This document shows, piece by piece, positions 8,027 through 51,257 of a DNA stretch of 64,000 nucleotides (its first letter is position 1; each line of letters begins with the position of its first letter). The notes below the pieces were generated by a model. The model made no database searches. It worked only from the letters and a program-made list of their open reading frames with translations, and was not told the DNA's origin. The DNA lies in assembly GCA_036574075.1 (NCBI GenBank), contig JAINCN010000031.1, positions 386 to 64,385 of the forward strand, given 5' to 3'. Source of the DNA: Deltaproteobacteria bacterium (GTDB lineage Bacteria > Desulfobacterota > Dissulfuribacteria > Dissulfuribacterales > UBA5754). The translations under genes and the position numbers were made by a program.

Positions 8027-8138
8027 ACGAGCTGTGTGTTTCGGCCGTCTTTATCGTGTCGAATCGTCGCCAGTCACGGTAAACGCGGGAAGGAAGATAC
8101 CCGCATGCCCAAAAGCCTAAAGAGGTCAAAGAGACGCC

Positions 8139-12208
<4,070 letters not shown>

Positions 12209-32357: not shown

Positions 32358-32397
32358 TTGTCACGAAAATGCCACCAAAATGTAACGCAATCGTCAC
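32358..32397 (+). promoter_or_regulatory. four heptamers at 11-bp phasing (Pho-box-like array)
   Basis: TTGTCAC-gaaa-ATGCCAC-caaa-ATGTAAC-gcaa-TCGTCAC at 32358, 32369, 32380 and 32391. On the coding strand 37 nt upstream of the 805-aa ORF. Confidence 0.5.
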
Positions 32398-41991: not shown

Positions 41992-42474
41992 TCATTTCGT
42001 TGATTCGCCTCCCTTTAGAAGCAGGTTCATTCCGTACCAGAGGGCGGTGTACCAGGCAGGTCCGGCGACCCTGCCCTGAAGGATCTGATACGCCCCCCAA
42101 CCCGCCAAGGCGAGAAAAGCGGCGGTTGGGATGTCAATCTGTCCGTTCGTTCCGGCCGTCACTGCGGAATTCAGGGTTCTGTATCCGTCTTTTATCCTTT
42201 GGGACAAGGGGCGAGTGTGTTTAGATGGCTGCCGTACGATGGTAAAAAGGCCAAGTGTCTCTGCCGCTTGACTGATTTGCCCAGGTGTTGAGCGATGCAT
42301 GATGAGTACACTGGCGGTTGTGGGGTTGGCCCTGACCTTCGTGACCATGTCGATATTGGAAAAGGCCTTTTCAATGTCTGCGAAATAGCCTGGGTCGTAT
42401 CTCCTTTCAGGGATCCTGAGACGGATTCTCCCTGTGCTTTCGTGAGCGACGGACGCCTCAGGAAGCCTTTTCAC
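41992..42474 (-). CDS. HMA-like domain protein with C-terminal hydrophobic region (copy b)
   Basis: Contains TGRIRLRIPERRYDPGYFADIEKAFSNIDMVTKVRANPTTASVLIMH and a C-terminal TM-like IPTAAFLALAGWGAYQIL...WYTALWYGMNLLL. There is no in-frame ATG after the upstream gene stop, so I propose GTG 42474, and the start is uncertain. Confidence 0.55.
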   Translation of the reverse strand: MKRLPEASVAHESTGRIRLRIPERRYDPGYFADIEKAFSNIDMVTKVRANPTTASVLIMHRSTPGQISQAAETLGLFTIVRQPSKHTRPLSQRIKDGYRTLNSAVTAGTNGQIDIPTAAFLALAGWGAYQILQGRVAGPAWYTALWYGMNLLLKGGESTK

Positions 42475-42751
42475 CCTCTTCCGCCTGGGAAGCCAAAGTG
42501 GCCTTGGTATGCTCTTCCTCGATTTCGGCCTGGACCTCGGCCCACATGTCCTCAATGGACTCGGCAAGCTCTGCGGCGGCCTCCTTCCCCTTCTCGTAAA
42601 AGAGAAACCCACTTTTAATGAAGGCCTTGGCTACGGGTTTGACGGTCTGGCCCAGGACAGGGATGAGTTTAGGGGCGACGGCTGCGGCGCCCAGCCCGAT
42701 GGCAAGACCTGCTAATGTCTTGTTCTTGAAGATATCTTCGACGATGCCCAC
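42458..42751 (-). CDS. small membrane-associated protein (DUF5132-like, from memory)
   Basis: TM-like LAGLAIGLGAAAVAPKLIPVL followed by an acidic helical tail. GTG 42751 has a strong SD (GGGAGGGA 6 nt upstream). The track start, ATG 42778, has none. Confidence 0.6.
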   Translation of the reverse strand: MGIVEDIFKNKTLAGLAIGLGAAAVAPKLIPVLGQTVKPVAKAFIKSGFLFYEKGKEAAAELAESIEDMWAEVQAEIEEEHTKATLASQAEEGEKAS

Positions 42752-43131
42752 GTTTTTTCCCTCCCATTTTATATTCATGAGGATACCGAAATATTAAACT
42801 TACGCAAACGGGAAGATTCATTACTTTCCTCATGGAGATTGTTAGCAAAAGGATACCGATAGATAGTGTATCATGGGTGCATGATTGACGCCGCCTCCAA
42901 CCTCTTCGACACAGCGACCTTGCTCGTCCTTCTGCGCCATGCCGAGCAGGAGAATGATTTGCTGCGCGATCAGATCCGTTCTCGTTCAAAAAGGCCCGAG
43001 ATGCAATGCGCGATACTTTCCCCTCCCCATCCCTACCCAGCGGGGGAGGGGAAGGGTGGGGGATCATCAGCCGCATGGGCTGAAAAATCGAAGTAACGCC
43101 GCGAGAATCGGGTTTTTCAGTGGGATCAGGG

Positions 43132-43500
43132 CTATATGAGCGCTGATACAAAGGAGAGGCCCATGGATTCAAGGGCCTTTTCCGCGGTGTATCCGAAGAT
43201 GGCCTTTCCGATAAATTCACCGGCGACCGCGGCCTGCCTGCTGACAAAATCCTCCTGTTCGATCTTTGTGCGGTCGAAATAGCCCGAGTTTTCCAGGGTC
43301 GTGAGGATGATGTCGTGATGGAGGACGTTTTTGTCGTACGTGATGAGGATGCTTCCTGTTGTGGTGTTGGTCTCGACGGACCTCACTCCCCGGAGCTGGC
43401 GCACTATGGTAGAGACATGTTCGGCCCGTGCGGGATTCTTTTTGATCAATGGGGTCTTGATCCGGATCCTGCCCGCAACCTCATGAAGATAGTAGCTCAT
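43132..43500 (-). CDS. HMA-like domain protein (copy a)
   Basis: 122 aa from ATG 43500 (SD GGAGAGG). Contains AGRIRIKTPLIKKNPARAEHVSTIVRQLRGVRSVETNTTTGSILITYD. The 206-aa track ORF is a 5' over-extension. Confidence 0.7.
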   Translation of the reverse strand: MSYYLHEVAGRIRIKTPLIKKNPARAEHVSTIVRQLRGVRSVETNTTTGSILITYDKNVLHHDIILTTLENSGYFDRTKIEQEDFVSRQAAVAGEFIGKAIFGYTAEKALESMGLSFVSALI

Positions 43501-43772
43501 GATGTCCTCTCCATGTATATGATCTTTTTGTAAGTTTTGCACATGGGATATTTTGAGCACCTGAATCTGATGCAGGTCTTCTCCCGCCTGTAAACGTACA
43601 TGATGTGCCCGCATAAGGGACAAACAAGTCGGGATCCCGGAAGTAATTTTGGCTCTGCGGAGCCGGAATACTGCCGGCCGCATGACATGCAAAGATAGCG
43701 TTGTTTTCCTCTTCCGGTCTTGCCATATCGGTAAAAGGTGTCTGATCCGCAATCAGGACAGCGTATTTCCAT
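43497..43772 (-). CDS. double zinc-ribbon protein (IS1 InsA-like ribbon plus topoisomerase-type C4 finger)
   Basis: 91 aa from ATG 43772: MEIRCPDCGS..GKQRYLCMSCGRQY then CPLCGH..FRCSKYPMC. ATGA overlap with the next gene. Confidence 0.65.
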   Translation of the reverse strand: MEIRCPDCGSDTFYRYGKTGRGKQRYLCMSCGRQYSGSAEPKLLPGSRLVCPLCGHIMYVYRREKTCIRFRCSKYPMCKTYKKIIYMERTS

Positions 43773-43796
43773 ATAACTTCTTAATACCGCTTGTTT

Positions 43797-43836
43797 GTTA
43801 CAGGCGTGTGACAAAATTGTGACAATTCTGTGACAA
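43797..43836 (-). promoter_or_regulatory. two tandem Pho boxes (four heptamers, 11-bp phasing)
   Basis: Minus strand reads TTGTCAC-agaa-TTGTCAC-aatt-TTGTCAC-acgc-CTGTAAC. A TATTAA hexamer (43781-43786) lies 10 nt downstream and the ATG follows 8 nt after it. Confidence 0.7.
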
Positions 43837-43870
43837 TGATGGTTGAGAGAGGAATGGAGAGTCATGGTTC

Positions 43871-43899
43871 TTGAGGGTAAGACGCGGTGGGCGTATAAA
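43871..43899 (+). promoter_or_regulatory. possible sigma-70 promoter for the PHA-system protein gene
   Basis: TTGAGG-17 nt-TATAAA, 53 nt upstream of ATG 43952. Confidence 0.3.
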
Positions 43900-43951
43900 G
43901 GGAAAGGGGAGTTATGCGTTAAAAACTCTCTCTGCAAGTGAGAATGCAGAT

Positions 43952-44254
43952 ATGTCCCGCATCGTGATCGAAAAAAGGCATGCACTTGGCGTCGATGAGG
44001 CATGGCGCCGAATAGTTCCGATTATCGAGGAAGCGGCCCGGACCTATGGCCTCGATGTCACTTGGGAAGATGGCAGATGTTTTTTCACCGGTCCGGCAAC
44101 CGGTCATGTGAATGTGTCTGAGGAATCTGTGCGTCTCGATGCGCGGCTCGGATTTGCCGCCCTCCTTTTTCGTTCCGCCATCGAGAGGCAGGTGCGGGAG
44201 GGCCTTGAAAAGGCCCTAAGTGACCTGGAAGATGATTACGATCTTGGTGCTTGA
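43952..44254 (+). CDS. polyhydroxyalkanoic-acid-system family protein (TIGR02610-like)
   Basis: 100 aa from ATG 43952. The pattern I.IEKRHALG...W..G...FTG...G.V.V....V.LDARLGF...F...IE..V...L matches my recollection of this small family. Confidence 0.6.
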   Translation: MSRIVIEKRHALGVDEAWRRIVPIIEEAARTYGLDVTWEDGRCFFTGPATGHVNVSEESVRLDARLGFAALLFRSAIERQVREGLEKALSDLEDDYDLGA

Positions 44255-44286
44255 TGCCGTTTTCGAGGTTTCCTCGAGATGAGGGA

Positions 44287-45006
44287 TCATCCTAAGACGG
44301 TATGGTTCAGTTCCTCTATGGGCTTGTGGCGAATATCCTTTCCCTTCACGAGGTAGATGATCGCCTCGCCGATATTTTTGATGTGATCCCCTATCCTCTC
44401 CAGGGAGCGGGCGGTCCAGATCATGTTGAGAGAACAGGGAATGAGCCGCGAGTTTTCCATCATGGCGAGAACGAGTTGACGAATGAGTGCTTCGTACTTG
44501 TCGTTGATGTCGCGATCCGCACGTATTACGGCAATAGCCTTTTCCAGCTCCAGATGTTCAAAGGCCGCGAGGACATCGCGCAAGGAAACTAGGATATTTT
44601 CTCCGAGATCCATGACGACGTGCGTGACAGGGTGCTCACCCCGTCTGCATCCTTCATCGTTGTCGATGACAAGCCAGGCGATTTTTTTTGCCTCGTCACC
44701 TATGCGTTCGAGATTGCCTATTATAGAGTTGACTGTCACAACGAGACGAAGATCGGATGCCGTCGGTTGACGGGTGGCAAGGATCTCGGTGCAGGCCTCG
44801 CTTATGGAGATGTCGAGCGCGTTGACTTCAGCATCCCGGGCGATCACTTTTTTCGCCTTTTCGATGTCCCCTTCCCGTAGGACACGGAGTGAATCATAGA
44901 CCTGGGTGGCGACGTATTTACCCATGCCAAGGGTACGGTCTATGATTGCCTCAAGTTCGACATTGAATTCTTCCGAGATGTGCGAGACAAATTTTTTTCT
45001 GTCCAT
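44287..45006 (-). CDS. phoU: phosphate signalling complex protein PhoU
   Basis: 239 aa from ATG 45006 with two PhoU repeats (ERIGDEAKKIA, ERIGDHIKNIG). The track ORF extends 73 codons further into MITE copy 4, which is an artefact. Confidence 0.93.
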   Translation of the reverse strand: MDRKKFVSHISEEFNVELEAIIDRTLGMGKYVATQVYDSLRVLREGDIEKAKKVIARDAEVNALDISISEACTEILATRQPTASDLRLVVTVNSIIGNLERIGDEAKKIAWLVIDNDEGCRRGEHPVTHVVMDLGENILVSLRDVLAAFEHLELEKAIAVIRADRDINDKYEALIRQLVLAMMENSRLIPCSLNMIWTARSLERIGDHIKNIGEAIIYLVKGKDIRHKPIEELNHTVLG

Positions 45007-51179: not shown

Positions 51180-51239
51180 GTCATTACCTCCTAATGGGAA
51201 TGTTGCTGACAAGTATACAGATCCCATTCCGCTTGTCTC

Positions 51240-51257
51240 GTTACAATTTTGTGACAA
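51240..51257 (-). promoter_or_regulatory. Pho box upstream of pstS
   Basis: Minus strand reads TTGTCAC-aaaa-TTGTAAC, against the E. coli consensus CTGTCAT-A(A/T)A(T/A)-CTGTCA(C/T). A TATACT hexamer lies at 51212-51217. Confidence 0.75.

Follow-up and report, generated by a model that had tools for sequence, protein, structure and literature searches.

A probable PhoB promoter with a predicted leaderless or near-leaderless start before a small zinc-ribbon gene of Desulfobacterota and Nitrospirota

In an uncultured lineage of the Desulfobacterota the gene for a small double zinc-ribbon protein, here called ZnR, is preceded by four heptamers which lie very close to its start codon. This raises the question whether these repeats form a promoter of the phosphate-starvation (Pho) regulon, and whether the messenger RNA made from it carries a leader. 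The window analysed, a stretch of 64,000 nucleotides, had been interpreted before from its letters only. This sequence-only reading described two tandem Pho boxes and a probably leaderless start of a Zn-ribbon/ATPase operon. The positions of the features are collected in Table 1.

Direct reading of the minus strand confirmed the coordinates of the four heptamers and all spacings between them. All four fit the pattern YTGTMAY with no mismatch and are exactly 11 bp apart, with the spacers agaa, aatt, and acgc (43836-43797). Pairs of the form YTGTMAY-N4-YTGTMAY with zero mismatches occur in the window only as three overlapping pairs in this array and as one further pair at pstS (51257-51240). When four heptamers in 11-bp register were scored on both strands of the 1.99-Mb genome, the array before ZnR reached the maximum score of 26/26 and ranked first of about 4 million positions, while the top array score in three shuffled genomes was 21. 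The repeat is far beyond chance.

Table 1. Features of the ZnR promoter region, its neighbourhood, and other Pho arrays of the genome. Positions refer to the window unless a contig (C) or locus (L) is named.
Feature	Position	Strand	Remark
Pho-box heptamer 1, TTGTCAC	43836-43830	minus	read from sequence
Pho-box heptamer 2, TTGTCAC	43825-43819	minus	read from sequence
Pho-box heptamer 3, TTGTCAC	43814-43808	minus	read from sequence
Pho-box heptamer 4, CTGTAAC	43803-43797	minus	read from sequence
Four-heptamer array, two tandem Pho boxes	43797..43836	minus	11-bp register; top score of the genome; same in sister genome
Spacer aaacaagcgg (10 nt), last heptamer to -10	43787..43796	minus	holds the 8-mer ACAAGCGG; read from sequence
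-10 hexamer TATTAA	43781..43786	minus	identical in sister genome
Discriminator gaagttat (8 nt) and ATG (43772-43770)	43770..43780	minus	predicted transcription start at or within ~2 nt of A43772
Double zinc-ribbon protein ZnR, 91 aa	43497..43772	minus	single copy; Pfam Zn_ribbon_InsA, 2e-9
HMA_2 (CoBaHMA) protein, 122 aa	43132..43500	minus	ATG overlaps ZnR stop (ATGA)
GGAAAGTAATG motif upstream of DUF5132/ATPase unit	42819..42829	minus	conserved across genomes
Copies of (T)AGGAAAGTAATGAAAGA elsewhere	L009:942, L045:2172, L048:3320, L049:8329, L050:16879, L052:1166, L012:11991 and 11879, L011:11241, L054:5015
Weak terminator-like hairpin and T-run upstream of array	43931..43950	minus	6-bp stem, consensus match only
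PHA_gran_rgn gene, divergent	43952..44254	plus	array ~116 bp upstream, opposite orientation
pstS single Pho box TTGTCACaaaaTTGTAAC	51240..51257	minus	motif scan; kept in sister genome
Third four-heptamer array of the window, TTGTCAC/ATGCCAC/ATGTAAC/TCGTCAC, before 805-aa operon	32358..32397	plus	score 24
Four-heptamer array upstream of phoA-type alkaline phosphatase	C4:14692 (loci L062-L064 group)		-10 at 10 nt
Four-heptamer array upstream of PHP-domain/GT4 glycosyltransferase fusion, 815 aa	C5:2815 (loci L062-L064 group)		-10 at 10 nt
Four-heptamer array upstream of unannotated 457-aa protein	C3:7802 (loci L062-L064 group)		-10 at 10 nt

An accidental repeat, or a relic such as the end of an IS1-like element, with no regulatory role would find some backing in the protein itself. 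Residues 2-31 of ZnR match the N-terminal zinc ribbon of InsA (Pfam PF03811, Zn_ribbon_InsA), and ZnR homologues (n=55) are often labelled 'IS1 family transposase' or 'insertion element protein' in public records. ZnR differs, however, from the InsA protein of IS1 by a second zinc ribbon, by its fixed synteny, by its single copy in the genome, and by the missing transposase partner; the gene downstream is HMA_2 rather than insB, and the synteny with HMA_2 and the ATPase genes is kept across phyla. As ZnR is a single-copy gene with conserved synteny and no InsB-like partner, the transposase annotation is wrong, and ZnR is not a gene of a multicopy mobile element. With an array score far above all shuffles in addition, the relic explanation retains next to no probability. 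An AF2 model of ZnR (pLDDT 80) consists of two zinc ribbons. A fold search with this model yielded generic zinc-ribbon matches only (VdcD, Rpb9, and Topo I ribbons), none of them with E < 0.001, and gave no functional clue.

The repeats belong to a motif which fronts phosphate genes in this genome. Further strong arrays stand before pstS, the alkaline phosphatase gene, the gene of the PHP-GT4 fusion, the gene of a PhoB-like regulator, and the 805-aa operon, which identifies them as Pho boxes. By accepted definition, a PHO box is built of repeat units of 7+4 nucleotides (PMC4415409). At the first four of these genes the heptamers and the 11-bp phasing are identical to those found here, and the interpretation as two tandem Pho boxes could thus be upheld. 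At four of the arrays of this genome a TAnnAn hexamer lies exactly 10 nt past the last heptamer, namely, TATTAA before ZnR, TACTAA on contig C3, TATACA on C4, and TACGAT on C5, and the design shared by the Pho promoters reads CTGTAAC, 10 nt, TAnnAn. The 457-aa and 358-aa proteins encoded downstream of the C3 array had no Pfam or NCBIfam match; their designation as porins was a guess and was dropped. The pstS promoter (51180-51257, minus strand) contains one Pho box, which is 22 nt away from TATACT, the only good -10 hexamer downstream of it; AATGGG occupies the usual 10-nt offset, and the sister genome has the same geometry. Among the Pho promoters of this genome pstS is therefore atypical. 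A MITE-like repeat (…CACGGATTCAGG… / …ATATGCAC…AACCTTTCGATTTCACAG…) was seen in intergenic regions of contigs C3 (~8100-8300), C40 (~19870), C28 (~7450), and C62 (~20150), and some of its copies sit between Pho boxes and the genes fronted by them.

Only two full-length OmpR/PhoB-type regulators are encoded in the genome. The best candidate for PhoB, located on contig C62, has PhoB TIGR02154 as its best family with 244 bits as compared to the NCBIfam equivalog cut-off of 296. The kinase gene following it has PnpS and PhoR as best families, both below the cut-offs. The closest solved structure is RegX3, a mycobacterial phosphate-starvation regulator, and for the DNA-binding domain that of E. coli PhoB (1GXP) is among the ten best matches. 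The recognition helix reads RTVDTHIRRLRK, which we take to be close to that of E. coli PhoB, and a single box, ATGTCACgtaaATGTAAC, is found upstream of the regulator gene. Given that 11-bp direct repeats are generic for the OmpR/PhoB family and that the C62 protein stays below the PhoB equivalog cut-off, the heptamers might instead be bound by another OmpR-family regulator, such as that of the two-component pair on contig C38, or by an unrelated factor, and the promoter would then be blind to phosphate. The same heptamers, however, front pstS, the gene of the alkaline phosphatase, and also that of the C62 regulator; in the distant relative G120 both pstS and ZnR carry the same TTGTAAC-type boxes; and the ZnR locus adjoins pstSCAB-phoU here and in two other genomes. 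Control by a regulator other than PhoB is very improbable in the light of these findings.

The ZnR promoter shares with the E. coli phoA and pstS promoters the 7-bp repeats of CTGTCAT/TTGTCAC type, the 11-bp phasing, the replacement of the -35 hexamer, and a box end located 10 nt before the -10. The pstS promoter of E. coli likewise has two tandem Pho boxes. The Pho-box consensus of this organism has been published (PMC4415409, PMC8601176), and the Pho box of phoA reads CTGTCATAAAGTTGTCAC (PMC8601176). In 5234 of 5426 complete E. coli genomes this box is followed by 10 nt and TATAGT just upstream of phoA, in agreement with the distance of about 10 nt given for E. coli in the sequence-only reading. 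Both spacings claimed for the ZnR promoter were found as well: TATTAA follows the array after exactly 10 nt, and the ATG comes 8 nt further. TATTAA has an A at position 6, where T is usual. A TTGACA-like -35 hexamer was not found 16-19 nt upstream of TATTAA, the nearest one, TTGTCA, being 22 nt off, and this is the usual picture of an activator-dependent PhoB promoter. Some differences to E. coli were also observed. The box spacers agaa and acgc are less A/T-rich, and whereas E. coli PhoB transcripts have ordinary Shine-Dalgarno leaders, with the phoA coding sequence beginning about 40 nt after the -10 region, ZnR starts 8 nt after it. Pho boxes of the cyanobacterial regulator SphR, with the Synechocystis consensus PyTTAAPyPy(T/A) and 3-nt spacing (PMC4195498), resemble the units of ATTTAAC/CCTTAAT type with an 11-bp period which are found at ZnR promoters of more distant relatives, whereas the boxes of the window are of the E. 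coli-like TGTCAC type. All defining features of the promoter sequence are present. The ZnR promoter appears to work in the manner of those E. coli PhoB promoters which have a tandem pair of boxes, and that it is a PhoB promoter can be assumed with high confidence.

It had also been suggested that the ZnR and pstS promoters share a common design at the junction GTAAC-N2-3-ACAAGCGG. This junction is indeed present at both promoters, but a common design is contradicted by the sister genome, which reads ATGAGAGG at ZnR and ACAGACGG at pstS, with heptamers and -10 both preserved. ACAAGCGG was rejected as a promoter element because its 47 genomic copies are about as many as expected by chance, it is missing from the other Pho promoters, and it is not conserved in the sister genome. 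The shared junction is probably fortuitous.

With the array so close to the start codon, an mRNA with almost no leader is expected. None of the 4-mers in the 25 nt upstream of the ZnR ATG could pair with the 16S 3' end GGATCACCTCCTTTCT. The anti-Shine-Dalgarno sequence of this genome is canonical, and AGGAGG is present at pstS and at the 11-mer-repeat gene. The coding sequence opens with ATG GAA ATA CGC TGT, its cysteine being the first zinc ligand. Between the -10 and this cysteine there is a single start codon, ATG 43772, which is the only possible start of ZnR. An upstream in-frame reading frame reaching position 44003 (168 aa) is an artefact, since in the sister genome a stop precedes the ATG by five codons. 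An in silico criterion for leaderless genes asks for a TANNNT which precedes the start codon by about 12 nt (PMC3160421). The first T of the hexamer stands 14 nt before the start in the window, and this distance amounts to 11 nt in the sister genome and ranges from 11 to 16 nt in the homologues; the layout thereby agrees with the criterion, TATTAA itself ending in A. Genome-wide, a crude analysis of open reading frames only revealed no TANNNT peak near -12 before start codons. Leaderless initiation therefore does not seem to be a habit of this organism, and the ZnR case would be gene-specific.

The layout was compared in related genomes. In the sister genome, 'Deltaproteobacteria bacterium UBA5754', which encodes a ZnR protein with 82% identity, none of the 28 heptamer bases is changed and TATTAA is the same, while the spacers differ. 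The 10-nt spacer reads aaatgagagg there as compared to aaacaagcgg here, and the ATG follows the -10 after 5 nt instead of 8 nt. A homologue search with the single ZnR sequence found only the query itself. The homologue set comprised four more genomes of the same order besides the window's genome and the sister genome, matches in 18 genomes out of a phylum-wide sample of 401, including two counted before, and three more from Nitrospirota; class-level and order-level genome searches gave the same 69 genomes. An array, 10 nt, a TATAAT-like hexamer, 5-10 nt, and a start codon were found in this order in 17 of 23 ZnR homologue loci from Desulfobacterota and Nitrospirota, and these 17 represent at least nine families of the two phyla. 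In all 17 the length from array to hexamer is fixed at 10 nt, the gap from hexamer to start has a median of 7 nt, and the distance from the end of the array to the in-frame start codon (16 ATG, one GTG) is 21-26 nt. The hexamer composition at the 10-nt offset (n=17), T15, A8/T6, T12, A9, A9, T13, accounts for its designation as TATAAT-like. Under a null of about 10%, in which the array is randomly placed upstream and the nearest in-frame start falls within the 21-26-nt window, 17 of 23 loci correspond to a binomial p = 4e-13, and 9 of 12 lineages at the family level to p = 1e-7. As the same layout stands before ZnR relatives in two phyla, it can be regarded as a real promoter. A Shine-Dalgarno leader does not fit into 5-10 nt, and with a correctly assigned -10 the transcript would therefore have to start at the AUG or a few nucleotides before it. 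With the 8-nt spacer of the window a canonical start would fall 1-2 nt before the ATG, and a leader of 1-3 nt is thus just as probable as none.

Six of the 23 loci (G007, G031, G353, G401, G447, and G146) are exceptions to the layout, and G146 has a clear GAGGAG Shine-Dalgarno sequence and a longer leader. In lineage f42 an in-frame GTG after GAAGGA just before the first cysteine is a possible alternative leadered start; variation at third codon positions upstream of this GTG argues for coding there. Second promoters of the ZnR type (four units, 10 nt, -10, 7-8 nt, ATG) were observed in G346 (L047:1136-1260) and G319 (L051:3845-3960). The short truncated ZnR-like reading frames behind them, with 35 and 26 codons, respectively, look like decayed paralogues which have retained the promoter. 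In G120 the pstS promoter (L053:11598-11680) consists of three TTGTAAC, 10 nt, TAATTA, and a leader with AGGAGG. Its boxes are of the type seen at the ZnR promoter of this genome, at a distance of 2 kb, and it can thus serve as a control which has a leader.

A different possibility is a real PhoB site with a normally leadered mRNA. The transcription start would then lie further upstream or the -10 would be misassigned, the ATG would be reached by a weak or non-Shine-Dalgarno mechanism, and the boxes might act as a repressing or modulating operator rather than as a substitute for the -35. The minus strand of the 179-bp intergenic region, however, yielded no sigma-70-like promoter, and the terminator-like hairpin upstream of the array would limit read-through from phoU and antisense PHA_gran_rgn. 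The purine-rich AAGAAG located 5 nt before the ZnR ATG speaks for a leadered start but is missing in the sister genome, which reads gccat. Shine-Dalgarno-bearing leaders do occur in some ZnR homologues, and the 22 nt from box to -10 at pstS demonstrate variable geometry in this genome, whereas a box-to-start distance of 21-26 nt kept in two phyla would not be needed by a leadered design. A leadered ZnR mRNA is therefore rather unlikely. If the promoter is a PhoB promoter, its mRNA is with good probability leaderless, and a PhoB-activated transcript with no or nearly no leader, well supported by comparison, appears likely on the whole. The leaderless start proposed before has gained support from the sister genome and 15 more distant homologues with a start 5-10 nt after a -10 at fixed offset.

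The ZnR gene shares its 179-bp upstream region with the divergent PHA_gran_rgn gene, which adjoins the cluster in two other genomes too, and the array could in principle mainly serve this gene or serve both. The boxes point to the ZnR gene, though, and the -10 is on the ZnR side; seen from the ATG of PHA_gran_rgn, the boxes are about 116 bp away, and their orientation is wrong for activation by the classical mechanism. In most ZnR homologues the array occurs without PHA_gran_rgn as a neighbour. That the array mainly serves this gene, or serves both, is highly improbable.

How far transcription from the ZnR promoter extends was judged from the downstream genes. HMA_2 has its own Shine-Dalgarno sequence, GGAGAGG, inside the 3' end of ZnR. 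The two genes adjoin, in tandem or divergently, in nearly every homologous locus fetched; no match for the HMA_2 partner was obtained by tblastn in L011 and L051. In 13 of the 18 loci fetched the pair is found less than 10 kb from a unit of DUF5132, HMA_2, 11-mer-repeat, P2-type ATPase, and MetK-like genes. In other genomes the pair is often on the strand opposite to the ATPase genes, or its two genes are divergent. In the window HMA_2 is followed by a gap of 353 nt (43131-42779), of which only the last ~70 nt are conserved in the sister genome. A motif in this conserved stretch, GGAAAGTAATG, is found again, as an exact or nearly exact copy, before the DUF5132/ATPase unit of at least 10 genomes and could be an operator, a promoter element, or the start of a tiny uORF. 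The motif had no Rfam match, and an Rfam scan of 42300-44300 gave nothing credible. Pho boxes before DUF5132 were found neither here nor in most relatives, and only G146 has an array there. From the opposite strands in other genomes, the gap, the motif of its own, and the lack of a Pho box before DUF5132 it follows that the ZnR promoter surely serves the ZnR/HMA_2 pair and that the ATPase unit is probably under its own control. Of the Zn-ribbon/ATPase operon suggested by the sequence-only reading the pair thus stands, while a single unit including the ATPase genes is doubtful in view of the gap and the strand swaps elsewhere.

Some further observations were made in this region. The conserved motif at 42819-42829, in the form (T)AGGAAAGTAATGAAAGA, is non-coding and occurs in several families 50-200 nt before the first gene of the DUF5132/HMA_2/ATPase/MetK-like unit. 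A G+C-rich hairpin, CCCTTCCCCTCCCC...GGGGAGGGGAAAG (43010-43060, minus strand, about -33 kcal/mol), lies in the gap after HMA_2; it has no U tail and is absent in the sister genome. For the DUF5132 gene (42749-42778, minus strand) a GTG at 42751 with the Shine-Dalgarno sequence GGGAGGG 7 nt upstream competes with an ATG at 42778. The sister genome lacks an equivalent of this ATG and keeps the Shine-Dalgarno sequence and the GTG, and the gene probably starts at the GTG. In cyanobacteria DUF5132 and CoBaHMA genes neighbour the calcyanin gene ccyA (bioRxiv 10.1101/2024.07.07.602159), a neighbourhood which hints at ion or mineral handling by the cluster but proves nothing.

The sequence anatomy, the membership of the motif in the regulon, and the conserved layout are shown by these comparisons, and from them we infer PhoB binding, phosphate dependence, the exact transcription start, and the mode of translation at the ZnR promoter as follows. 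Upon phosphate limitation the PhoR-like kinase would phosphorylate the PhoB-like regulator encoded on contig C62, and two PhoB dimers would bind the four heptamers head-to-tail. The promoter-proximal dimer would replace the missing -35 and recruit sigma-70 RNA polymerase to TATTAA, and the transcript would begin with the A of ATG 43772 or no more than about 2 nt away from it. ZnR would be translated without a Shine-Dalgarno sequence, and HMA_2 by coupling via its own Shine-Dalgarno sequence and the ATGA overlap.

A leaderless gene of the Pho regulon is not without precedent. In Streptomyces (S. coelicolor, S. lividans, and S. filipinensis) phoR of the phoRP operon is a Pho-regulon gene with the transcription start at the A of its ATG (PMC6283541), so a Pho-regulated leaderless gene is already known. 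The ZnR gene resembles it in its predicted combination of Pho regulation with a leaderless start. The Streptomyces gene, however, encodes a sensor kinase, has GTTCACC-type PHO boxes, and comes from the Actinobacteria, a group in which leaderless genes are frequent, whereas ZnR is a small zinc-ribbon protein of Desulfobacterota and Nitrospirota, and this genome has no general leaderless signal. The array before ZnR thus looks like a phosphate-starvation promoter of a rather ordinary kind, in which the leaderless start is the unusual element, and what appears to be notable is that a single gene family has kept this layout in two phyla. It would represent a clean case of a gene-specific leaderless design kept across phyla, in genomes in which leaderless genes are not the rule.

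For the uncultured lineage studied here the analysis defines the Pho box and the promoter geometry as four heptamers, 10 nt, and a -10. By its promoter, a widespread family of small proteins which public records mislabel as 'IS1 transposase' would be assigned to the Pho regulon in anaerobic members of the Desulfobacterota and Nitrospirota. By linkage, the conserved CoBaHMA/DUF5132/P-type ATPase cluster would be placed in the Pho regulon as well. It is conceivable, though unlikely, that ZnR is a second-tier regulator of phosphate starvation which is switched on by PhoB through a promoter leaderless by design in both phyla and acts on the CoBaHMA/DUF5132/11-mer-repeat/P2-type ATPase/MetK-like unit, perhaps at (T)AGGAAAGTAATGAAAGA; if true, this would tie an uncharacterised ion-handling or inclusion-forming system to phosphate starvation.
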